Sequence record: PQ433350.1 | Length of the DNA: 45,511 bases | DNA from: Escherichia phage vB_Ec-G8 | Direction: 5' to 3' (one strand) | Shown here: positions 4,768 to 43,717 of the stretch, one piece after another | Numbering within the stretch: position 1 is the stretch's first letter | How the letters are laid out: every line of letters starts with the position of its first letter | Program-made: the position numbers and the translations under genes | Notes under the pieces: generated by a model | Seen by the model: the letters and a program-made list of their open reading frames with translations, nothing else | The model's database searches: none | What the model was told of the DNA's origin: nothing

Positions 4768-4787
4768 TTTAGCAATTAGTGCTATTT
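4768..4787 (-). promoter_or_regulatory. Boundary element copy (AATAGCAC-N5-TGCTAAA core), precedes cor
   Basis: Minus-oriented core; Rha TAG stop inside; leader ...CCACATCGAAACGAAACGAA then cor ATG. Confidence 0.6.
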
Positions 4788-5526: not shown

Positions 5527-5545
5527 TTTAGCAAATCGTGCTATT
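5527..5545 (-). promoter_or_regulatory. Boundary element copy, upstream of Rha-like gene
   Basis: Minus-oriented core AATAGCACGATTTGCTAAAG. Confidence 0.55.
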
Positions 5546-5626: not shown

Positions 5627-5895
5627 TACGCGATGTTACGCCAATTTACGCATTTGTTACATTAAAATATCTATATATATCAACCTTTTACTCTTATTAT
5701 TATTATTATATATATTACTGTGTATATCATGTAACTACTTCTATAGAGTGTTCCGGTTATAATTTTAATATCATGTGGATTTATACAGTATTGCGCGGCA
5801 GCTATACCAATGCACCATCAGCAATAAATGATATACACGATATACACACTGGTTACATTGAGCTATAGCTGGGCTGGAACACCATTTTACGTAAC
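5627..5895. repeat. Divergent control region A (homologous to 24666-24990)
   Basis: Colinear shared blocks 5646-5685, 5694-5733 (TTA microsatellite + GTGTATATCATGTA), 5863-5877 (CTATAGCTGGGCTGG); palindrome CGGTTACACGTAACCG at 5569-5584. Confidence 0.7.
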
Positions 5896-12771: not shown

Positions 12772-13245
12772 TTACTCTTTAGCTTTTCGTGCTGCTTCGT
12801 TGGCTGCCTTAATTTTGCGCCATGAGCGACACTCTGGTTTAGTTGCTAGCTCAGCCTCAGTAACAACACGCAGCATATGACGCTTCTTGCAACGTAGAGT
12901 TAGCGGTTTCCCGTTACCGTCGAATTGCAGATCTGGTCGGCAGAATGTAGCGCGAAAACCTTCTCCATTTCGCTTATAGTAGTTGTGCGACAACTGAGCG
13001 CCGCGCGCAGAAATCATCCCACGCTTAAACCATTCTTCTACAGCCTGAGGTGTCACCTTTAACTGCTTTGCGATATTTGCCTTTGTGCCGAAGAAATCAA
13101 GAACAATCTCCAGTCGCGCACGTAAACCCGCCCTTACCTCATCTTTCAAAACGTAGTAACCTGAAGGTCGTTTACGTTGCTTCTTATCTTGTGTGCGGAC
13201 GGTCCCGTTATTGCCGTTAATTGTTCGCTTGTCAACTGCATTCAT
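12772..13245 (-). CDS. Putative HTH DNA-binding protein
   Basis: Basic protein with helix-turn-helix-like segment (NIAKQLKVTPQAVEEWFKRG); start placed at ATG 13245 with GAGGT SD rather than ORF-track start 13281. Confidence 0.55.
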   Translation of the reverse strand: MNAVDKRTINGNNGTVRTQDKKQRKRPSGYYVLKDEVRAGLRARLEIVLDFFGTKANIAKQLKVTPQAVEEWFKRGMISARGAQLSHNYYKRNGEGFRATFCRPDLQFDGNGKPLTLRCKKRHMLRVVTEAELATKPECRSWRKIKAANEAARKAKE

Positions 13246-13346
13246 TTCATTACCTCGATAGCATTTTTTGTTAAAAGTCATTCTGATTTGATAGTATTAT
13301 TGTACTCAATTAAACGCTACAAGACAATTTTTATAGGAATTTAGAT

Positions 13347-15342: not shown

Positions 15343-15762
15343 ATGCAAATTACAGACAAAGAAGATTACATTGAGTTTTACCCAGGCCCGGTTAAGTCAT
15401 GCCCGAAAGAGGATGACGAACAAATCTTTTGCTCTGATTGGGTTAAGTATAACTACCCGGAGATGGTATTTTTCCACTGCGTAAATGAGGGCAAGAAAAC
15501 CATTGGTCAAGCAAGAAAAGATCAGGCGAAGGGGTTGCTTAAGGGCGTATCAGACTGCTTATTCCTGATACCTGAATCGCTGCGAGGGAAATATCCTTTC
15601 GGGGCTATAGAGCTAAAGAGGGCTGGTAAAACTCAAGCAAGTCCAGTCAGCGAAGAACAGAAAGCATTTCTGAAAAGTGTAATGGAATCAGGCGGTTTCT
15701 CGGCAGTCGCCTACGGACGTGAGGGTTTTCTTGCAGCATTCAAAGAAATGATTTCAAAATAG
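15343..15762 (+). CDS. VRR-NUC domain nuclease
   Basis: 139 aa; PD-(D/E)xK-type motif (SDCLFLIP...GAIELKR); start overlaps the helicase stop; TAG stop inside a boundary element. Confidence 0.7.
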   Translation: MQITDKEDYIEFYPGPVKSCPKEDDEQIFCSDWVKYNYPEMVFFHCVNEGKKTIGQARKDQAKGLLKGVSDCLFLIPESLRGKYPFGAIELKRAGKTQASPVSEEQKAFLKSVMESGGFSAVAYGREGFLAAFKEMISK

Positions 15763-15777
15763 CACGAATTGCTAAAG
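15759..15777 (+). promoter_or_regulatory. Boundary element copy, precedes 15839 ORF
   Basis: ATAGCACGAATTGCTAAAG with upstream TAG stop inside. Confidence 0.6.
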
Positions 15778-15838
15778 ACGTTTCGGTGAGTTGGTGTATT
15801 ATCTATTCATCGAAACGAAACTCAGAGAGAGAAACAAA

Positions 15839-16033
15839 ATGACCACTATCTATACCGGTAAAATCTACGAATCACGCAAAACTGGTTATGAATATGAATT
15901 AGTAATCACCGCTGATTGTTATGTTCTTGATGATGGTGAAGGTTATGCTTTCGAAGTTAGTCCAACCTACAAAGATGATTTAGAAACTGTTAAAAACGCA
16001 TTTGGCGAAAAATTTGATGAGGTGTCAGAATGA
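15839..16033 (+). CDS. Hypothetical protein (64 aa)
   Basis: ATG 15839 preceded by the conserved element leader (CATCGAAACGAAA...GAGAGAGA); ORF-track start 15791 is TTG. Confidence 0.5.
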   Translation: MTTIYTGKIYESRKTGYEYELVITADCYVLDDGEGYAFEVSPTYKDDLETVKNAFGEKFDEVSE

Positions 16034-16188
16034 GAGAGGCAATCGTAAACTGGAAAACTGGAGAGGATTCAAAATTCCTCTTCAATACATTCACGCAATA
16101 CATTGACAAGTTTGTTTTCGTAATTGATGGTGGATGTGAGGTTGTTGTGCCTATTAAGCTAATTGATGGATTTGGGGTTACGGAGTAA
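16030..16188 (+). CDS. Hypothetical small protein (52 aa)
   Basis: ATGA overlap with the upstream stop and TAATG overlap with the downstream start; below the ORF-track size cut-off. Confidence 0.35.
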   Translation: MREAIVNWKTGEDSKFLFNTFTQYIDKFVFVIDGGCEVVVPIKLIDGFGVTE

Positions 16189-16409
16189 TGAAAAAATTAA
16201 CTTTTGATAAGCAATGGGAGCTATTTCAGGCAATGGCGGCTCAGGAGTTGACTAAGGCTGGATATAAACATGATGTTTGGGATTTGGCGTGGTGCCTTGA
16301 TTATAGTTTTGAAGAAGACTACCTAAACACTGATATTGAAACATGGCGCGACCGTATAGTTGCTGATATCGAAGAAATGAAAAAAGATTGCCAGGAGGAT
16401 TTCTTATGA
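16188..16409 (+). CDS. Hypothetical acidic protein (73 aa)
   Basis: Translationally coupled ORF; strongly Asp/Glu-rich. Confidence 0.5.
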   Translation: MKKLTFDKQWELFQAMAAQELTKAGYKHDVWDLAWCLDYSFEEDYLNTDIETWRDRIVADIEEMKKDCQEDFL

Positions 16410-16606
16410 TTAACGAACGACCATTATTTATTAAATTCAAACCAAGAAATAATAAACCTAGAATTGATATTGACGAATACTTACTTAAATCAGGTGAAGA
16501 ATATTTTGTTCTTGAAATATCCCCAAATTCAGACGGGTTCATAGTTAAAAATGGCGCTGGGATATTAGTTAGAGTATCAGTATTAGACGCGGAGATTGTA
16601 AGATGA
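16406..16606 (+). CDS. Hypothetical protein (66 aa)
   Basis: ATG 16406 with GGAGGA RBS, overlapping the upstream stop (ATGA). Confidence 0.45.
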   Translation: MINERPLFIKFKPRNNKPRIDIDEYLLKSGEEYFVLEISPNSDGFIVKNGAGILVRVSVLDAEIVR

Positions 16607-16728
16607 AAATCGTAGATAAAGAGATGTTTATGGTTGCCCAGCATTTTGCTGAATTTGCAGTTGAGTTTCAATCAGAAGAGCATTGGATGTGTGCCCGTGA
16701 GTATTTGAAACTGGCATATGGCTTATGA
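16603..16728 (+). CDS. Hypothetical small protein (41 aa)
   Basis: ATGA-coupled micro-ORF between two listed ORFs. Confidence 0.3.
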   Translation: MKIVDKEMFMVAQHFAEFAVEFQSEEHWMCAREYLKLAYGL

Positions 16729-16967
16729 TAGTTGAAACAGGAAGGGCCGCAGTCTGGGCCCACTGCGCAGAGGCCGGACTTCAGGATGACATAAAGATGA
16801 TATCTAAGTATTTCGATATAAAAGATATCAGTGTCATTTTTAACGGTAAGTTTACTTACATGGATGAAAGGCCGCGTAAGTATGTCAGGGTTAAGCCTGG
16901 TATCACGATAAACACGAATGAGTTCCTTAGAGAGCAGGGATTCAAATTTAAGATAACAAAGGGTTAG
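16725..16967 (+). CDS. Hypothetical protein (80 aa)
   Basis: ATGA-coupled ORF. Confidence 0.5.
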   Translation: MIVETGRAAVWAHCAEAGLQDDIKMISKYFDIKDISVIFNGKFTYMDERPRKYVRVKPGITINTNEFLREQGFKFKITKG

Positions 16968-16969
16968 TT

Positions 16970-17221
16970 ATGTTGGGATTAGATTTTCAGCCTGAGCATT
17001 ATGATTTAGTACATGGGCAAAGTGGCGCAAAGTTTAGGGCGATACCTATTGCTGATTGGTTCCCTCCTGATTATGTAGATGTGAATGCAAAAACTAAAGA
17101 CGGTAAGTGGGTGCAGATTTACTACTCAGCAGCTTGCGGAAACCTGTGCATGACTGACCTTGACCAGAAGTTAACAATTAGTGCTGATTTGATTGACTAC
17201 TGGTTGAAAGAAGTTGAATGA
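16970..17221 (+). CDS. Hypothetical protein (83 aa)
   Basis: ORF with AAGGG RBS. Confidence 0.5.
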   Translation: MLGLDFQPEHYDLVHGQSGAKFRAIPIADWFPPDYVDVNAKTKDGKWVQIYYSAACGNLCMTDLDQKLTISADLIDYWLKEVE

Positions 17222-17304
17222 ATATCCTAATACTAGTAGCATTAGTCCCACTGTTTAGCTTTACTATCTTATATTTTATCGTAATGAATTAAGGAACTTA
17301 TATA

Positions 17305-18459
17305 ATGGCAACTGCAAAAATCACCAACGAACAATTGCGCGAAGAGCTGGAAAATGGCATGACCAACAAGGCCATCGCAGAGAAGTACGGAATGAACATT
17401 CGCAATGTTGAGTTGCGTCGCAGTAAATTGGCGAAGCAGGGTGAAGGTCACGGTCGTGATGTTAGTAACCTAATCCCTCAAGGGTATGCTGTAAAAGGTG
17501 TGTCTAGCTTAATTGGTGCAGATGGTGAGATTAAAGGGCAGTGGGTTAAATCAGAGGTTGACAAGGAACGCCAGCAAGAACTAATGCAAATTGTTGTTGA
17601 GGAGCTTAAGAAGGATTTACCTAAGTATAAGGCTGTCAACCACTCAGGAGAGATTACTAATTCTGAAATTCTCAACCTCTACACCATCACCGACCATCAC
17701 ATTGGGATGCTTGCCTGTTCAGAGGAGGGTGGTGATAATTATGACACCAAGATTGCTGAGAAATTAGCATTAGACTGGTTCAGTAGTGCCGTTGCAATGA
17801 GTCCGAACAGCGATGAGTGCATAATTAACTTTTTGGGGGACGAGGCTCACTACGACTCAATGAAAGCCGTAACCCCAATGAGTGGTCACATTCTTTCTGC
17901 TGATACTAGGTTATTCCGAATGATTCGAACTCAGATTAAATTAATCAAGTCAGCTGTAAGCATGTGTCTGGTTAAGCATAAAAAGGTTAAGTTATTGATT
18001 TGTGAGGGAAATCACAACCCGGTATCTTCATTGTGGTTGCGCGAGATGTTTCATGAAGTATTTATTGAAAATGAGCGAGTTGAAGTGAATCGCGAAGTCT
18101 CCCCTTATTACGCATATGAATTTGGAGACGTTATGATTGCTATGCATCACGGGCATTGCGCTAACTTCTCCCGAGTTGAATCAGCAATAATTGCCAAGTA
18201 TCGTGAGATGTTTGGTAAATCAAAGTTCGCATACACACATCTAGGCCACCTGCACCATAGAGCTGTTAAGGAAACTAGCTTGATGATTATTGAGCAGCAC
18301 CAAACGCTTGCTGCAAAAGATGAGTACTCATCCAAAGGTGGGTACTTCTCTGGGCGCAGCGCTAACGTTATTACGTACCACAAGAAGTATGGAGAAGTTA
18401 GTCGAGTGAGCATTCCCGTTGAAATGCTTCGTGACGCAAACCCTGAATCCAAATACTAA
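17305..18459 (+). CDS. Calcineurin-like metallophosphoesterase with N-terminal HTH domain
   Basis: 384 aa; ordered phosphoesterase motifs DHH (TDHHIG), GDxxxxD (GDEAHYD), GNH (EGNHN), HHGH, GHLHH; N-terminal ~50 aa HTH-like. Confidence 0.7.
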   Translation: MATAKITNEQLREELENGMTNKAIAEKYGMNIRNVELRRSKLAKQGEGHGRDVSNLIPQGYAVKGVSSLIGADGEIKGQWVKSEVDKERQQELMQIVVEELKKDLPKYKAVNHSGEITNSEILNLYTITDHHIGMLACSEEGGDNYDTKIAEKLALDWFSSAVAMSPNSDECIINFLGDEAHYDSMKAVTPMSGHILSADTRLFRMIRTQIKLIKSAVSMCLVKHKKVKLLICEGNHNPVSSLWLREMFHEVFIENERVEVNREVSPYYAYEFGDVMIAMHHGHCANFSRVESAIIAKYREMFGKSKFAYTHLGHLHHRAVKETSLMIIEQHQTLAAKDEYSSKGGYFSGRSANVITYHKKYGEVSRVSIPVEMLRDANPESKY

Positions 18460-18477
18460 TAGCACTTTTTGTCAAAA
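18459..18477 (+). promoter_or_regulatory. Boundary element variant, precedes HNH endonuclease
   Basis: ATAGCACTTTTTGTCAAAA followed by GAAA-loop hairpin and GAGAGGAG RBS. Confidence 0.5.
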
Positions 18478-18530
18478 CTATACCCGCGAAAGCGGGTATT
18501 ATTGTTTTATAGAAACGAGAGGAGATTGAA

Positions 18531-19004
18531 ATGAATTGGCACGATTATTACGAATATTCAGATGGTTATTTGTACAGAAAGAACCACAAGGTATCATCTT
18601 ATAACGGAGTTAAGGCCGGGTATGTTGATTTGAGAGGTTATGTTAGGACTAAGCTGTTTTCAAAGATGACTTTTGCCCATCGAGTAATATGGGAAATGCA
18701 TAACGGAGAAGTTCCTGAAGGTATGGAGATCGATCACATTAATGGAGTTAAGCACGATAATCGGATAGAGAATTTGAGATGTGTGGATAGGTTTATCAAC
18801 TGCAAGAACGCATCAAAGAGATCTGACAACAAGAGCGGAACAACTGGAGTTAGTTATTCAAGCTCAAAGCAAAGATGGATAGTGCAATTGCAAAAAGATG
18901 GCGTTAGGGAGTCAAAATCCTTTATGGATAAATTTGACGCAGAAGTCTACGCTAAAAATTTCTACGCAGCAAACCCAGAATTTACAGAGAGGCACGGTAA
19001 ATAG
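18531..19004 (+). CDS. HNH homing endonuclease with AP2-like DNA-binding domain
   Basis: 157 aa; HNH block (AHRVIWEMHNG...IDHINGVKHDNRIENLR); own upstream element and GAGGAG RBS. Confidence 0.85.
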   Translation: MNWHDYYEYSDGYLYRKNHKVSSYNGVKAGYVDLRGYVRTKLFSKMTFAHRVIWEMHNGEVPEGMEIDHINGVKHDNRIENLRCVDRFINCKNASKRSDNKSGTTGVSYSSSKQRWIVQLQKDGVRESKSFMDKFDAEVYAKNFYAANPEFTERHGK

Positions 19005-19020: not shown

Positions 19021-19085
19021 CATGCCGTAGAAATGCGGCATAATCACCACATCGAAACGAGATGAAACAAACGAGGAAACACAAG

Positions 19086-19262
19086 ATGACTAAAATGATT
19101 TATTGCACCAAGAACAACTCCAAGACGCTTCCATTTACAGTTAACCAGCCGTACAATGCAGAGTATCAGGGTGACGGATATTACAAGATTTACGGAGATG
19201 ATATGACGTGGATTTTAGCACCGATTGATGGTTCGCTGGTTGAATTTATTATAGCAGACTAG
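19086..19262 (+). CDS. Hypothetical protein (58 aa)
   Basis: ATG 19086 preceded by the conserved leader (CACATCGAAACGAG...CGAGGA); followed by a strong terminator. Confidence 0.45.
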   Translation: MTKMIYCTKNNSKTLPFTVNQPYNAEYQGDGYYKIYGDDMTWILAPIDGSLVEFIIAD

Positions 19263-20460: not shown

Positions 20461-20476
20461 TGGAGGCTATATTTTT
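20451..20476. terminator. Bidirectional terminator between lysis cassette and ATPase operon
   Basis: AGCCTCC-taat-GGAGGCT flanked by A6 and ATATTTTT. Confidence 0.7.
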
Positions 20477-20810
20477 AGCTAAATAACTCTTCGTCAGTCA
20501 TTGTCCCTATGTTCATCATCTCTTTTATGTACTGGCTTTCATACCCGTTAAGCGCCTCAAAGTTGAAACCAAATGGCCTCTTCAAGCTACCCTTACTAAC
20601 AAACTCACCGCACTTGCCATCAATGTATCCGGCACTCAACATCTTCGCGCAGAACTCCTTTGAGGCAGCGCTGCAAAACTCTCTATGTGACAATCCTGCC
20701 GCCTTACTGAATCTCTGAGAGTCCTTATGCTGGTAGATGAATCGCGCCAAATGCTGGCGCGTAAAGTATGAATACGACTCACAGAACTTAAATATATCGA
20801 GTATGAACAT
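20475..20810 (-). CDS. Hypothetical protein (111 aa), last gene of the ATPase operon
   Basis: GGAG RBS 8 nt upstream; start is 2 nt after the stop of the upstream micro-ORF. Confidence 0.5.
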   Translation of the reverse strand: MFILDIFKFCESYSYFTRQHLARFIYQHKDSQRFSKAAGLSHREFCSAASKEFCAKMLSAGYIDGKCGEFVSKGSLKRPFGFNFEALNGYESQYIKEMMNIGTMTDEELFS

Positions 20811-22973: not shown

Positions 22974-22993
22974 TTTAGCAATTAGTGCTATTT
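22974..22993 (-). promoter_or_regulatory. Boundary element copy, precedes 22911 ORF
   Basis: Minus-strand AAATAGCACTAATTGCTAAA + hairpin + TCATCGAAACGAAAC leader. Confidence 0.6.
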
Positions 22994-23282: not shown

Positions 23283-23301
23283 TTTAGCAATTCGTGCTAT
23301 T
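23283..23301 (-). promoter_or_regulatory. Boundary element copy, precedes 23230 ORF
   Basis: Minus-strand AATAGCACGAATTGCTAAA; upstream ORF stops at the internal TAA. Confidence 0.6.
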
Positions 23302-24459: not shown

Positions 24460-24478
24460 TTTAGCAAAAAGTGCTATT
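24460..24478 (-). promoter_or_regulatory. Boundary element copy at the leftward edge of control region B
   Basis: Minus-strand AATAGCACTTTTTGCTAAAG. Confidence 0.55.
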
Positions 24479-24665: not shown

Positions 24666-24990
24666 CGTATACGCGTTATAAAAGTTATGCCTTGTAGATG
24701 ATGCCACCCTCCGTAGGAATCGTGTACGCCTATAACGCTGAATTACGCAATGGTTACACTATAATATCTATACATAACAACCATTTAGTAGTATTATTAT
24801 TATTATATATATTACTATGTATATCATGTATATCCCCCTTGCGGGGAGGGTCGATAGTTTTTCTATGAAAATGACATTTTCTATATATATAAGGATAGGT
24901 ATATACCCTCCGCGTTTTCCGCGGAAATTAATCTACAGGCAAATTACATGCACTATAGCTGGGCTGAGGTGGCAAAAAACGTAACCAGGG
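24666..24990. repeat. Divergent control region B (homologous to 5627-5895)
   Basis: Shared blocks 24743-24782, 24794-24830, 24953-24966; extra hairpins (CCCC-ttgc-GGGG; CCGCG-ttttc-CGCGG). Confidence 0.7.
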
Positions 24991-26661: not shown

Positions 26662-26925
26662 ATGAGTAAGTACAACCGTGAGATTATCGGCCTGGATGGG
26701 GAAGTAACCACAGTGGATGTATATCGAGTCCTGGATGCATTCCAGGTAACAGACCCAGCTATACAGCACGCAATCAAGAAGATGCTGTGCACTGGACTTA
26801 GAGGGCATAAGGACTATCTTACTGACATTGAAGACTCCATTGAATCACTGCAAAAAGCCAGGGAACTTTACGATCAGCGCAAGAGTTACGAGCGGCGATA
26901 CAATTTATCTTTTACAGATAAATAG
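26662..26925 (+). CDS. Hypothetical protein (87 aa)
   Basis: CGAGGA RBS; TAG stop lies inside an element. Confidence 0.5.
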   Translation: MSKYNREIIGLDGEVTTVDVYRVLDAFQVTDPAIQHAIKKMLCTGLRGHKDYLTDIEDSIESLQKARELYDQRKSYERRYNLSFTDK

Positions 26926-26939
26926 CACGAATTGCTAAA
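26922..26939 (+). promoter_or_regulatory. Boundary element copy, precedes 26995 ORF
   Basis: ATAGCACGAATTGCTAAA, hairpin, TGtTATAGT extended -10, CACACCAAACGAGAGG. Confidence 0.65.
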
Positions 26940-27359: not shown

Positions 27360-27378
27360 ATAGCACGAATTGCTAAAG
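27360..27378 (+). promoter_or_regulatory. Boundary element copy, precedes 27434 ORF
   Basis: TAA-ATAGCACGAATTGCTAAAG, TGtTATAGT, CCACATCAAAACTAACGAGG. Confidence 0.65.
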
Positions 27379-28121: not shown

Positions 28122-28261
28122 GCTTCATTGAATACGCAATTGCATGTGAACGACTGGTCTTTGATATGAAGACCTTCCACTGGTTCATCATCAAGGATTT
28201 AATCAAGCCGTACAAGCAAGGTGTTACGCCAGAGGCTTTTGTTAAGTCATTCTATAAATAG
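28118..28261 (+). CDS. Hypothetical small protein (47 aa)
   Basis: ATGA-coupled; TAG stop inside an element. Confidence 0.35.
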   Translation: MSFIEYAIACERLVFDMKTFHWFIIKDLIKPYKQGVTPEAFVKSFYK

Positions 28262-28275
28262 CACGAATTGCTAAA
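28258..28275 (+). promoter_or_regulatory. Boundary element copy, precedes 28332 ORF
   Basis: ATAGCACGAATTGCTAAA, GCCA-tgga-TGGC hairpin, TATAAT, CCACATCAACACAACGAGAG. Confidence 0.65.
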
Positions 28276-28845: not shown

Positions 28846-28923
28846 GCTCTGCTAGCTCAACGGGAAAGAAGCAACGACCTTCTAAGTCGTAGGTTACTGG
28901 TTCGAATCCAGTGCGGAGCGCCA
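28846..28923 (+). tRNA. tRNA-Arg (anticodon UCU)
   Basis: Cloverleaf folded by hand: 7-bp acceptor stem (GCTCTGC/GCGGAGC with one G-U), anticodon stem ACGAC/GTCGT, loop CTTCTAA (anticodon TCT at 28881-28883), T-arm ACTGG-TTCGAAT-CCAGT, discriminator G and encoded CCA. Confidence 0.85.
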
Positions 28924-29317: not shown

Positions 29318-29824
29318 ATGAGCAAAGCAGCATTAAAGATGGGTGAGGGAAATTTCAAGGCGCTATACAACAAGAAGTATGGCGACATTGCTATGGTGGC
29401 AATCAACCGCAAGTACACGCCTGAGGAAGTTTTCGATTTCGCCGTTAGATACTTCTCCTGGGCTGAGAGCGAGGCAATTAAGGCTATTGAGACGGCTGCT
29501 TTCCAGGGTGTGGTTAGCGAGAGCCTCGTACACAAGCCTAGAGTATTCACCTTAACTGGGCTGGCGCTCTTTATGGGTGTCAATATCAATAGATTCGCTC
29601 GCTGGCGTACTGAGGCTGGATACTCTGATGTGATGGAATTCATTGATAACGTTATTTACGAGCAGAAGTACCAGCTTGGTGTCGCAGGCATCATCAACTC
29701 TACCATCGTTGGTAAAGAGCTAGGAATTGATAAGCCGCAGGAGATTAAGATTAGCAACAACTCAACAGCTAACGATGTTGACAGTATGAAGGAAGCTCTG
29801 GAATCTGTAATTAGCAAGCTATAA
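29318..29824 (+). CDS. Terminase small subunit
   Basis: 168 aa ORF immediately upstream of the large terminase; AAGGAGGA RBS; assignment by position and size. Confidence 0.7.
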   Translation: MSKAALKMGEGNFKALYNKKYGDIAMVAINRKYTPEEVFDFAVRYFSWAESEAIKAIETAAFQGVVSESLVHKPRVFTLTGLALFMGVNINRFARWRTEAGYSDVMEFIDNVIYEQKYQLGVAGIINSTIVGKELGIDKPQEIKISNNSTANDVDSMKEALESVISKL

Positions 29825-29841: not shown

Positions 29842-31407
29842 ATGTCTTTAGTATGGGAAGAAATGACCATTCAGGAAAAGATGGCTGTTAAGGCGATATC
29901 AGAACACAGCTTCGAGGGTTTCCTTCGTTGCTGGTTCCAGATTACACAAGGCGAACGATACATCCCTAACTGGCATCACAAGTACTTGTGCAGAATCATT
30001 GACGAGATTATTGCAGGCGAAAGAAAGGACACCATTATCAACATAGCACCAGGCAGCGGAAAGACGGAAATTGCCTCAATCCACTTCCCGGCCTATTCGA
30101 TGGTTAAGCTTAGGAAGGTGCGCAACCTTAACATCTCTTTTGCTGACTCCCTGGTTAAGCGTAACTCGAAGCGAGTGCGTGACCTTATCAAGTCTCAAGA
30201 ATTTCAGTCACTCTGGCCATGCAAGTTTGGCACTTGCAAAGACGATGAGCTTCAGGTTCTTGATGAGAGTGGCAAGGTTAGATTTGAGTCAATATCAAAG
30301 GCGGCTGGAGGCCAGATTACTGGCGCTCGCGGTGGGTACATAACCGAAACATACAGCGGAGCCGTTCTTTTGGATGACTTTGACAAACCCGCAGATATGT
30401 TATCAGCAGTGTACCGCTCGAATAATCACGTAATGCTTAAAAATACGATTCGCTCACGTCGAGCCAGTTCTGTAAAAGGCAAAGCGACACCAATCATTTC
30501 GATACAGCAGCGGCTTCACGTCAATGACTCAACCTGGTTCATGATGGAGGGGGGTATGGGTATCGACTTTGACTTGGTTAAGATACCGGCTCTGGTTACT
30601 GAGGATTACATCGACTCGCTCCCTGACTGGATTAAAGATCAGTTTGCTGAGGACGTACTAAGCAGCGAATATATTGAGCGAGATGGCGTAAAGTACTACA
30701 GCTACTTTCCTAAAAAGGAATCCGTAAACGACCTGGTGGCAATGTGGGATAGCGACCCCTACACTTTCCTCAGCCAGTATCAGCAGGAGCCAGTAGCGCT
30801 GGGTGGCAACCTAATTAACGTGGACTGGTTCCAGCGAATCAGTGATACGTTCAGACCTCCAGCTAAGTACGACTATCGATTCATAACTTGCGATACCGCA
30901 ATGACCACTAAAAGTTACAGCGACTTCTCTGTTCTTCAGTTGTGGGGCTATAAAGATGCTAAGATTTACCTTATTGATCAGCGCAGGGGTAAATGGGAGG
31001 CCCCAGAGTTGGAGGCTGAACTGCTGGACTTCGAGAAGAAATCAAGGGCAACCAGTCAGTCAGATGGTATCCTCAGAAAGATTATTATCGAGAAGAAAGC
31101 GTCTGGTATCGGCCTGATTCAATCAGCTGGCAGGGTTATGCGAACACCGATAGAGCCATACGTACCGGATAATGACAAGCTAACCAGGGTGATGAGTGCA
31201 CTACCACAGATTAAGGCTGGTAACGTAGTTCTTCCAGAGTCATCGCCGTGGCTAAACGGATTGCTCACTGAGGTTGCGGCTTTTACGGCAGATGACTCGC
31301 ATAAGCACGACGACCAAATTGACTGTCTAACAATGGCGGTAAACCTTGTGCTTAACATCGCGGATGATCCTAAGGCGAGACTGATGCGCATAGCGGGAAT
31401 GAAATAG
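29842..31407 (+). CDS. Terminase large subunit
   Basis: 521 aa; N-terminal ATPase with Walker A (APGSGKT), C-terminal nuclease-like acidic residues; TAG stop inside an element. Confidence 0.9.
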   Translation: MSLVWEEMTIQEKMAVKAISEHSFEGFLRCWFQITQGERYIPNWHHKYLCRIIDEIIAGERKDTIINIAPGSGKTEIASIHFPAYSMVKLRKVRNLNISFADSLVKRNSKRVRDLIKSQEFQSLWPCKFGTCKDDELQVLDESGKVRFESISKAAGGQITGARGGYITETYSGAVLLDDFDKPADMLSAVYRSNNHVMLKNTIRSRRASSVKGKATPIISIQQRLHVNDSTWFMMEGGMGIDFDLVKIPALVTEDYIDSLPDWIKDQFAEDVLSSEYIERDGVKYYSYFPKKESVNDLVAMWDSDPYTFLSQYQQEPVALGGNLINVDWFQRISDTFRPPAKYDYRFITCDTAMTTKSYSDFSVLQLWGYKDAKIYLIDQRRGKWEAPELEAELLDFEKKSRATSQSDGILRKIIIEKKASGIGLIQSAGRVMRTPIEPYVPDNDKLTRVMSALPQIKAGNVVLPESSPWLNGLLTEVAAFTADDSHKHDDQIDCLTMAVNLVLNIADDPKARLMRIAGMK

Positions 31408-31421
31408 CACAAATTGCTAAA
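31404..31421 (+). promoter_or_regulatory. Boundary element copy inside late operon, precedes moron 31477
   Basis: ATAGCACAAATTGCTAAA, GCCA-cgga-TGGC, TATAGT, TTCACACAAAAGAGAGGAG. Confidence 0.65.
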
Positions 31422-31809: not shown

Positions 31810-31830
31810 CCACAAAAGCTATGATAAACT

Positions 31831-31853
31831 AGCCCCTAAATGGGGCTTTTTTA
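31831..31853 (+). terminator. Terminator-RBS module before portal
   Basis: AGCCCC-taaat-GGGGCT + T6 then ATTGGAGA RBS. Confidence 0.75.
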
Positions 31854-31865
31854 TTGGAGAAAAAC

Positions 31866-34769: not shown

Positions 34770-34786
34770 TAGTTAAGACTAAACTA

Positions 34787-34808
34787 ACCCGCTTCGGCGG
34801 GTTTTTTA
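34787..34808 (+). terminator. Rho-independent terminator (UUCG loop)
   Basis: ACCCGC-ttcg-GCGGGT + T6. Confidence 0.75.
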
Positions 34809-34892
34809 TTGCCTATCATCTCATCATTGCGTGGTCTAAAAACTCGTGTATAATGAACACGTAGACACCTAACTGAAAAGGAACAATAAAGA

Positions 34893-37819: not shown

Positions 37820-38476
37820 ATGGCCCATCTCAGCAATGGCACGCAGGTCTTCGTAGAAGGCTCTCGCGGAGCTGCAATTGACGTAACAGCAATTTCTAAC
37901 GCAGTTACCCCTGTTTTAACTGTATCTGACGCATCAGGCTTGGTTGTTGGTGATTACCTGCTTTTCACCTTCTCTGCTTCGACGCTTCTGGCTGACAAGC
38001 AGGTTCGCGTAACTGCAATCTCTGGCACGTCAGTAACTGTTGAAGGTATTGATACCTCCAGCACTACCAAGTTCCCAGCTGGTTTAACTGGTGAAGTTGT
38101 TAAGATCACTTCATGGTTCGAAGTTCCGTGCGTTCAGGACGTATCCACTGATGGCGGCGAGCAGCAGTTCGTTAACTTCCAGTGTCTTTCTGATGACCGT
38201 GAACAGCAGATTCCGACTTATAAATCTGCCGTAACAAACACCTTTACATTTGCTCATGAGTACACTAACCCGGTTTATCCGGTTCTTCGCAACTACGATG
38301 AGTCGGGTCAGGTTGTTGCGATTCGACTGTTCGTACCTCGCGCTAGCGAAATGCGTTTGCAGTCTGGTACTATCGCTTTCAACGACACCCCTACCATTGG
38401 TGTTAACGAAATCGAAACGGTATCCATCGCGGTATCAATCCGCGGTCGACTGTCTTCGGTGGCGGCTGAAGTTTAA
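37820..38476 (+). CDS. Major tail protein
   Basis: 218 aa; position between connector genes and chaperones/tape measure; followed by terminator. Confidence 0.75.
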   Translation: MAHLSNGTQVFVEGSRGAAIDVTAISNAVTPVLTVSDASGLVVGDYLLFTFSASTLLADKQVRVTAISGTSVTVEGIDTSSTTKFPAGLTGEVVKITSWFEVPCVQDVSTDGGEQQFVNFQCLSDDREQQIPTYKSAVTNTFTFAHEYTNPVYPVLRNYDESGQVVAIRLFVPRASEMRLQSGTIAFNDTPTIGVNEIETVSIAVSIRGRLSSVAAEV

Positions 38477-38482
38477 AACACA

Positions 38483-38506
38483 AACCCTCTTCGGAGGGTT
38501 TTTTAT
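38483..38506 (+). terminator. Rho-independent terminator after major tail gene (UUCG loop)
   Basis: AACCCTC-ttcg-GAGGGTT + T6. Confidence 0.8.
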
Positions 38507-38509
38507 TAC

Positions 38510-39197: not shown

Positions 39198-39509
39198 GTG
39201 TATCTACAGTACCAGTCAGAGCCAACTGATGCCGAGCTGGAAGCTATTGGGATGCGCCGCTCTGATTACGAAGATGAAGAGCCTGAAGTTTTGCACTTCG
39301 ACGACAATATGATGAAGGCGTGGGACATTTACTGTTCAATGGCTACACAATGGAGAGTCGGGGCTAACGGAGCTACAGGGTTAGATTACAACGTGCTAAA
39401 TTTCCTCTTTAGAGTGTATAATGTCTCAGAAGAAGAATTGGTGCTCAGCGATTTACGCATCCTTGAAGCTAAGGCTCTTGAGATGATGGATAACCTGAGA
39501 AAAAAATAA
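39198..39509 (+). CDS. Tail assembly chaperone -1 frameshift extension (gpGT-like C-terminal part)
   Basis: -1 frame ORF with no credible independent start, reachable by -1 slip at A_AAA_AAC (39180-39186). Confidence 0.6.
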   Translation: MYLQYQSEPTDAELEAIGMRRSDYEDEEPEVLHFDDNMMKAWDIYCSMATQWRVGANGATGLDYNVLNFLFRVYNVSEEELVLSDLRILEAKALEMMDNLRKK

Positions 39510-39530
39510 CCCGCTTCGGCGGGTTTTCTA
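39509..39530 (+). terminator. Terminator/attenuator hairpin before tape measure (UUCG loop)
   Basis: ACCCGC-ttcg-GCGGGT + TTTTCT. Confidence 0.55.
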
Positions 39531-39544
39531 TTATGGAGGCTTAG

Positions 39545-42553: not shown

Positions 42554-42904
42554 ATGGCTATTGATACTTTTAATTACTGCACTCAAGTCCAAAATGGAGG
42601 CGGCTCATTCTCTAACACTAACAACGTGCGAATTGTTAGCTTCGGCAATGGTTACGAGCAGCGTGGGACTGGCGGTTATCGAAGTAACAAGCGAAGCTAC
42701 CAGATGACTTACACAAACAAGGACTGGCGGGAGGTGATGGAATTTTGCTTTAACCACATCATTACCCCGTTCTTCTGGACTACGCCGCATGGTGACACAT
42801 CAATGTTTGTGATTCAGCAAGATAGCATTAGCGTCACGCCACTCAGTAAGGAAGTTCAGACTGTAAACATGCAATTCGTGGAAGTCTTTAGCTCAATGCG
42901 TTAA
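42554..42904 (+). CDS. Minor tail protein (lambda gpM-like)
   Basis: 116 aa; position between tape measure and gpL-like gene. Confidence 0.75.
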   Translation: MAIDTFNYCTQVQNGGGSFSNTNNVRIVSFGNGYEQRGTGGYRSNKRSYQMTYTNKDWREVMEFCFNHIITPFFWTTPHGDTSMFVIQQDSISVTPLSKEVQTVNMQFVEVFSSMR

Positions 42905-42908
42905 ACTA

Positions 42909-42930
42909 AGCCCCATTAGGGGCTTTTTTA
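42909..42930 (+). terminator. Terminator-RBS module before gpL
   Basis: AGCCCC-atta-GGGGCT + T6 then ATTGGAGA. Confidence 0.7.
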
Positions 42931-42942
42931 TTGGAGAAATAT

Positions 42943-43698: not shown

Positions 43699-43717
43699 AT
43701 AGCACTTTTTGCTAAAG
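43699..43717 (+). promoter_or_regulatory. Boundary element copy inside tail operon, precedes moron 43772
   Basis: TAA-ATAGCACTTTTTGCTAAAG, hairpin, TATAGT, CTCACACAAACGAGAGG. Confidence 0.65.

Follow-up and report, generated by a model that had tools for sequence, protein, structure and literature searches.

The window analysed here is the whole 45,511-nucleotide stretch of Escherichia phage vB_Ec-G8 (sequence record PQ433350.1), which is approximately a complete T1-like siphovirus genome, and the gene under study (17305-18459, + strand) encodes a 384-amino acid protein combining a helix-turn-helix (HTH) segment with a metallophosphoesterase (MPE) domain. In the phage most closely related to it, Escherichia phage BEK1-1 (Drexlerviridae, Braunvirinae, Veterinaerplatzvirus), the protein is 97.7% identical. 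Direct reading of the sequence places a ribosome-binding site, AAGGAA, 9 nt 5' of the ATG start codon (17291-17296, +). The gene is the last in a transcription unit (15757-18499) made up of a promoter-like element, seven small open reading frames (ORFs) without assigned function, the HTH-MPE gene and a terminator-like hairpin. The element at the head of the unit, AAATAGCACGAATTGCTAAA (15757-15776, +), probably serves as a promoter component; the same element is described for phages TLS, T1, Rtp and Rogue1 (PMC11447400). The hairpin at its end (18480-18499, +) resembles an intrinsic terminator and lies where a terminator is annotated in T1. Upstream neighbours of the gene are a helicase and a VRR-NUC-type protein, whose T1 counterpart by position is annotated as a Holliday-junction resolvase; downstream follow an HNH endonuclease, a small ORF, a holin, an endolysin and a spanin. 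The T1 genome shows identical synteny (helicase, resolvase, small ORFs, Orf16, terminator, HNH, small ORF, holin, endolysin, spanin).

The HTH-MPE ORF is not a chance reading frame, because tblastn recovered it from 2007 phage records, among them Escherichia, Klebsiella, Salmonella and Vibrio phages, and a profile search returned 6298 clusters at 50% identity. Among the best 150 of these clusters, nearly all proteins are 370-400 aa long and have the same architecture as the window protein, and members of the family are also found in many phage-derived regions of Proteobacteria. The gene belongs to a known, already annotated and very large phage family, PHROG 704 ('DNA repair exonuclease'), which it matches over its full length (E 8.3e-141, residues 4-375 on profile positions 2-389 of 390). 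Its T1 ortholog, Orf16 (AAP49983.1, CPTT1_064), is 40% identical over the whole length including the HTH (BLASTP E 3e-96) and carries the annotation 'exonuclease; HHpred 99% to E. coli SbcD 4LTY'. The family name 'exonuclease' is a predicted function assigned by homology, and homologues are listed in databases under names as different as 'winged HTH protein', 'phosphoesterase', 'Ser/Thr phosphatase', 'DNA polymerase II small subunit' and 'sigma-70 region 4 protein'. The gene is persistent in 508 of 522 Drexlerviridae genomes (PMC13164509), and its position upstream of the holin-endolysin-spanin cassette is conserved in the window, in T1 and in those 508 genomes.

The protein is built from four consecutive segments. 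The first is a three-helix HTH domain (aa 1-48, helices at 8-16, 21-28 and 32-44; 17305-17448, +), defined by the AlphaFold model and by Pfam matches across the family, followed by a glycine-rich linker of low model confidence (aa 49-58; 17449-17478, +) that takes the form of a GHGRDVS / GFSPEHDM-type motif in aligned relatives. Next comes a family-specific beta-hairpin (aa 61-85) and helix (aa 87-103; together 17479-17619, +), seen in both alignment and model, and then a calcineurin-like MPE domain (aa 118-375; 17656-18429, +) supported by the AlphaFold model, structure comparison and family Pfam matches; the protein ends nine residues past this domain. A first-pass annotation made from the sequence alone had listed the motifs DHH, GDxxxxD, GNH, HHGH and GHLHH in that order behind an HTH-like segment of about 50 aa, and the translation bears this out. 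In sequence and alignment these are motif I, D130-H131-H132 of the DxH[LI]G type (17692-17700); motif II, G178-D179-E-A-H182-Y-D184 with the family consensus GDFLHxD (17836-17856); motif III, G235-N236-H237 (18007-18015); motif IV, H281-H282-G283-H284 (18145-18156); and motif V, G314-H315-L316-H317-H318 (18244-18258), all on the + strand. They correspond to the five motifs of the MPE superfamily (DxH, GD, GNH[DE], H and GxH) in the expected order. In an alignment of 47 sequences, whose most divergent pairs share 41% identity, none of the metal-ligand or catalytic residues varies, with D130, H132, G178, D179, H182, D184, N236, H237, H282, G283, H284, G314, H315 and H317 present in 47 of 47 homologues.

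The AlphaFold2 model (mean predicted local distance difference test score, pLDDT, 81; predicted template-modelling score, pTM, 0.70) shows an MPE beta-sandwich with every motif directly after a beta-strand, at the C-terminal strand ends where the MPE fold expects them. The N-terminus folds as three helices in the model, in agreement with the HTH proposed earlier, and would serve as a DNA-binding module. The hairpin-helix element between the two domains, which the first-pass annotation had overlooked, is conserved as well (G60, G65, S67, W80 and K82 are invariant in the 47-sequence alignment), and no structural match to it was found. Domain databases gave a divided answer. For the window protein alone, Pfam returned nothing significant (only GerE, E 0.11, 12.6 bits against a cut-off of 23.5), with no match to Metallophos (PF00149 / PF12850) above the gathering score; NCBIfam gave sub-threshold response-regulator HTH matches only, and a PDB sequence search found no significant match, while the family profile against PDB gave HTH-like noise only. 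Across the 47 sequences, weak matches appear to Metallophos in 20 (best E 6.8e-5), to GerE in 17 and to HTH_23 in 14, and a distant relative (P0143) reaches 25.1 bits for Metallophos against a cut-off of 21.5. Pfam support for the domain assignment suggested earlier thus comes from the family and not from the window protein itself, and the HTH matches are weak and scattered across the family and below threshold for the window protein.

The N-terminus varies in type. Five of ten tested relatives with N-termini outside the family profile gave weak HTH matches, one of them (P0144) with two HTHs. A scan of bacterial genomes with a 10-sequence alignment as query yielded 71 loci, and most of the N-termini there show an HTH-like pattern, 'HGS..KAA.ALG...R'. 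Four of these loci (L021, L025, L035 and L036) carry a zinc-ribbon-like CxxC...CxxC segment in place of the HTH, and Rhizobiales versions (L022 and others) have the beta-hairpin motif in two copies. Judging from these sequence patterns, a nucleic-acid-binding N-terminus of variable type appears to run through the family, as most homologues inspected carry one. Because the N-terminal binder is exchanged for another rather than lost, the substrate or site of action would be nucleic acid, and we regard this exchange as the strongest argument on that point.

Comparison with characterized enzymes places the protein outside the Mre11/SbcD family, with a catalytic core that appears Mre11-like. Motif I, DxH[IL]G, occurs likewise in E. 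coli SbcD (SDWHLG), and motif II, GDxxH, appears similar to GDLFH of Mre11. In structure comparison, only about 187 residues align to SbcD/Mre11 chains of 319-362 residues. Unlike Mre11/SbcD enzymes such as E. coli SbcD and T4 gp47, the window protein has no capping domain and no C-terminal Rad50-binding helices, has an N-terminal HTH and hairpin that those enzymes lack, and does not match their sequence profile. No Rad50/SbcC-like ORF was found among the ten identified of the 13 ORFs of at least 300 aa in the window (central tail fibre, membrane protein, RecE-type exonuclease, tail fibre, primase, two helicases, the HTH-MPE gene, large terminase and portal); the other three, unscanned, lie in the head-tail module. 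The class III cyclic-nucleotide phosphodiesterases and GpdQ (Rv0805, CpdA/Icc, GpdQ) are top Foldseek matches, and they share with the window protein a compact MPE without a capping domain. The MPE half is only 37-41% identical to the T1-type enzymes of most E. coli Drexlerviridae and forms a different allele group. The Pseudomonas putida MPE that partners the Lhr helicase is a stand-alone, Rad50-independent DNA nuclease of the MPE fold encoded beside a helicase. By analogy, this enzyme may be the nearest working model conceptually.

In a Pseudomonas lambdoid prophage, a DnaC-like loader, an HNH gene, a Ref-like protein, a resolvase and a small ORF precede the HTH-MPE homologue, and a Q-like antiterminator, large terminase and portal follow it. 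In Vibrio phages, the family gene stands directly after the single-stranded DNA-binding protein gene (SSB), and in Jerseyviruses it lies in a small reverse-oriented cassette within the tail genes. Clustering of neighbours at the 71 bacterial loci, which are not independent of one another, found a nucleotide-metabolism gene within 6 kb in 36 of them, mostly directly downstream on the same strand, and an endolysin nearby in 29, usually upstream. The salvage-type neighbours counted were deoxynucleoside monophosphate (dNMP) kinase, nucleoside-deoxyribosyltransferase-like protein, HD dNMP phosphatase, HD phosphohydrolase and MazG-like protein, and the association is seen in Rhizobiales, Xanthomonadales and Burkholderiales as well as in Roseobacter and Marinobacter. 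It agrees with the arrangement in Drexlerviridae, where a polynucleotide kinase or dNMP kinase often comes next after the gene (PMC13164509). A small protein (phrog_35442 / phrog_4521) also recurs beside the MPE gene in locus L008 (5621-6007) and in Rhizobiales loci (cluster 11); it is similar to the C-terminal portion of certain polynucleotide or nucleotide kinases, and the ORF encoding it in L008 overlaps the MPE ORF at its start.

The gene itself is a mosaic of two modules. Nucleotide comparison places a recombination junction at 17587/17588, near codon 94, where homology to other Veterinaerplatzvirus genomes stops, to resume at about 18997; identity to most of these genomes is 86% over the gene's first 283 nt and does not extend to the remainder. 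At the protein level, the HTH is 92-96% identical to that of several E. coli Drexlerviridae proteins whose MPE domains are only 37-41% identical, whereas a Salmonella Jerseyvirus protein shares 79% identity in the MPE and only 54% in the HTH. A second case comes from an unrelated lineage, in which two loci (L096 and L121) are 92% identical over residues 1-100 and 43% in the MPE, with the DNA break near nt 300 and homology returning at the gene end; no HNH gene is involved there. The same domain-boundary breakpoint is found in two unrelated lineages, so that the catalytic half acts like a cassette that is exchanged behind an N-terminal module specific to each lineage.

In the window, the replaced block extends beyond the gene. 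Compared with a 44,219-bp relative that has no HNH gene, it comprises the C-terminal MPE part together with the HNH homing-endonuclease gene (phrog_99; 18531-19004, +), which lies directly after the HTH-MPE terminator; the closely related genome L079 lacks the HNH gene. An HNH gene occupies the same spot in T1, MM01 and Jerseyvirus LDW16, with the LDW16 protein only 32% identical, and nucleotide similarity to T1 in this 4.4-kb region is confined to 18458-18557 (91%), a stretch that takes in the end of the HTH-MPE gene, its terminator and the beginning of the HNH gene. Joint arrival of the Jersey-like MPE half and the HNH gene from a Jerseyvirus was considered and is not supported, as the HNH proteins share 32% identity and DNA identity to LDW16 is only moderate. 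Homing-associated co-conversion from an unnamed donor is possible.

We propose, with confidence that is no more than moderate, that the HTH-MPE protein is a Rad50-independent, DNA-tethered two-metal nuclease for end or intermediate processing and/or host-DNA breakdown. As envisaged, a stand-alone DNA phosphodiesterase would use a two-metal catalytic core of the Mre11/SbcD kind, and its own N-terminal module (HTH, beta-hairpin and helix) would hold DNA in place of the Rad50/SbcC clamp and the capping domain. Transcribed at the end of the phage replication/recombination unit, the enzyme would most likely process DNA ends or intermediates for RecE/Erf-type recombination-dependent replication, and it could additionally or alternatively break host DNA down into 5'-mononucleotides for reuse by the phage. 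In favour of this reading stand the invariant active site, the style of motifs I and II, the recurring nucleic-acid-binding N-terminus, the replication and recombination genes nearby and the salvage-type neighbours. In T4, gp46/47 together with a dNMP kinase play a parallel role. The analysis establishes the domain architecture, the conserved catalytic residues, the fold, the lack of a Rad50-like partner among the ORFs identified and the gene neighbourhoods, and from these we infer DNA as the substrate, nuclease activity, its dependence on metal and the biological role itself. If the proposal is true, the protein would be an example of an Mre11-type active site freed from Rad50 by fusion to its own DNA-binding module. 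T1 and TLS break down the host genome and reuse its nucleotides, with the responsible genes not identified (PMC11447400), and the HTH-MPE protein is a concrete candidate for the T1-group enzyme that would degrade the host chromosome for this purpose.

Several observations weigh against a DNA nuclease of this kind. Foldseek gave near-equal scores to Rv0805 (1.8e-7), the archaeal DNA polymerase D (PolD) small subunit DP1 (7e-7), GpdQ (8e-7) and MjMre11 (9e-7), so that Mre11 is not singled out, and E. coli SbcD falls in phrog_100 and not in phrog_704. PDB sequence searches with the single protein and with the family profile found no match to SbcD/Mre11, and an hhalign comparison of the family profile with the single E. 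coli SbcD sequence aligned 17 columns around GNHD, a test too insensitive for subfamily assignment. The phage already encodes a RecE-type exonuclease. The nucleotide-metabolism neighbours fit a small-molecule substrate equally well, and their counts are inflated by close relatives (Brucella/Ochrobactrum), which make up many of the 71 loci. Finally, a literature search found no experimental, functional work on any member of the family, even though the gene is near-universal in T1-like phages (PMC13164509) and present in about 2000 phage records.

The alternative that would account for these neighbours is a phosphoesterase acting at the level of nucleotides, either a nucleotidase or a phosphodiesterase of cyclic or linear (oligo)nucleotides, with the HTH serving localisation or regulation only; such an enzyme would remodel the nucleotide pool or destroy the nucleotide second messengers of host immunity. 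We consider this unlikely, though the least unlikely of the alternatives, given that the nucleic-acid-binding N-terminus present in most homologues inspected is swapped for other DNA binders and not lost, and that the persistent core-gene status in Drexlerviridae (PMC13164509) would be unusual for an anti-signalling accessory gene. PADLOC models also gave no match to the protein; with this result, and with papers on the sensing of host-DNA degradation dealing with T-even denA and not with T1-like phages, a link to defence or anti-defence was rejected. The interpretation offered by the first-pass annotation, a DNA-directed nuclease/phosphatase or a self-regulating enzyme, finds partial support. 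A Ser/Thr/Tyr protein phosphatase analogous to lambda NinI would share the superfamily, the label of serine/threonine phosphatase attached to homologues in some records, and a comparable map position, the gene lying between the Holliday-junction resolvase and the Q antiterminator in one lambdoid prophage of Pseudomonas, the slot of NinI on the lambda map. NinI is not known to carry an HTH. The window family in turn lacks the phosphoprotein phosphatase (PPP) signatures GDxHG, GDxVDRG and GNHE, the window protein does not have the PPP-type fold and its structural similarity to PPP enzymes is much lower; it is clearly not a PPP-type phosphatase, and a NinI-like function is very improbable. No more can be said for a polymerase-associated proofreading 3'-5' exonuclease subunit like archaeal DP1, which we regard as highly unlikely: a polymerase-subunit name is used in some records and in the TLS paper, but there is no DNA polymerase among the scanned ORFs of the window, and the segment N-terminal to the MPE is an HTH with hairpin and helix and not the oligonucleotide/oligosaccharide-binding (OB) fold of PolD DP1 and polymerase B-subunits. 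A role like that of the small terminase TerS was ruled out, as a separate small terminase is encoded at 29318-29824. The 'HKD nuclease' that seemed to replace the HTH-MPE gene in phage MM01 was also dismissed; the label belongs to the helicase, and MM01 carries the MPE gene too.

A different kind of alternative is that the protein is a site-specific DNA-binding regulator, whose HTH would read the palindrome AAATAGCAC-N3-TTGCTAAA as activator, repressor or site-tethered enzyme. The core of this palindrome, TAGCA-N5-TGCTA (in full AAATAGCAC[GAA/TTT/AAA]TTGCTAAA), occurs in 21 copies with at most one mismatch, against 2.06 expected, and none of 100 shuffles reached 21. The copies are oriented with transcription (for example at 15760-15774, 26923-26937, 27361-27375, 28259-28273, 31405-31419 and 43700-43714, and in reverse orientation at 4770-4784, 5529-5543, 22976-22990, 23285-23299 and 24462-24476) and precede a TATAGT/TATAAT-like -10 box by a fixed distance of about 22 nt, with their centre near -42 of the predicted starts. 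The palindrome had already been described in TLS, T1, Rtp and Rogue1 as a '21-nt direct repeat', and the literature names no binding protein for it (PMC11447400). Element density is 0.41-0.83 per kb in 14 of 14 IMG/VR loci with the window HTH type and at most 0.24 per kb in 80 loci with other HTH types, none of which is enriched, a co-occurrence that is suggestive but fully confounded by phylogeny. A second lineage of IMG/VR contigs (L093-L097 and L121), which has an HTH type of its own, is enriched for a palindrome of its own as well, TTGACG-N4-CGTCAA (4-8 copies per 12-21 kb). The HTH module has been kept and the MPE module swapped in both lineages. Set against this, at least two other conserved candidate regulators are encoded in the window (12772-13281, phrog_2856; and 20475-20810, phrog_2794, homologous to a T1 protein with an HTH annotation), a pure regulator would have no evident use for the invariant catalytic site, the zinc-ribbon and unrelated-HTH variants argue for generic DNA binding, and no clear full element stands beside the HTH-MPE gene itself. 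A regulatory role is accordingly improbable, and the protein is a long-shot candidate for the binder of the repeated ATAGCAC...TTGCTA elements. We give similarly little weight to the combined form, a promoter-tethered phosphoesterase whose N-terminal module would be the missing reader of these elements. Were it true, the protein could be an activator of class-II type, or a factor resembling sigma region 4, that has an enzymatic function besides, or else a nuclease that tells phage from host DNA by these elements. The repeated swaps of the catalytic half behind a kept HTH would in that case be a sign that the HTH and the sites of its own genome had co-adapted.

Other features of the window were also recorded. 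A 96-nt AT-rich direct repeat (…TATTATTATTATTATATATATTACTGTGTATATCATGTA) is found, 85% identical, in two intergenic regions (5638-5733 and 24735-24830), and both copies may act as strong early promoters of another kind than the ATAGCAC-type elements. Hairpins with GC stems and T-runs lie between genes of the structural module (31821-31855, 34776-34810, 38473-38507, 39498-39532 and 42898-42932); they resemble intrinsic terminators, consistent with the 'transcripton' organisation described for T1. Between the HNH gene and the holin, a 66-aa ORF (phrog_4788; 19062-19262, +) sits where, according to a 2026 paper, the Drexlerviridae lysis module has a stand-alone SH3 (DUF7244) protein. Lastly, an inverted-repeat arm at 28883-28913 contains GGTTCGAATCC, which resembles a tRNA T-arm, and from this sequence likeness a tRNA gene may be present near 28.9 kb.

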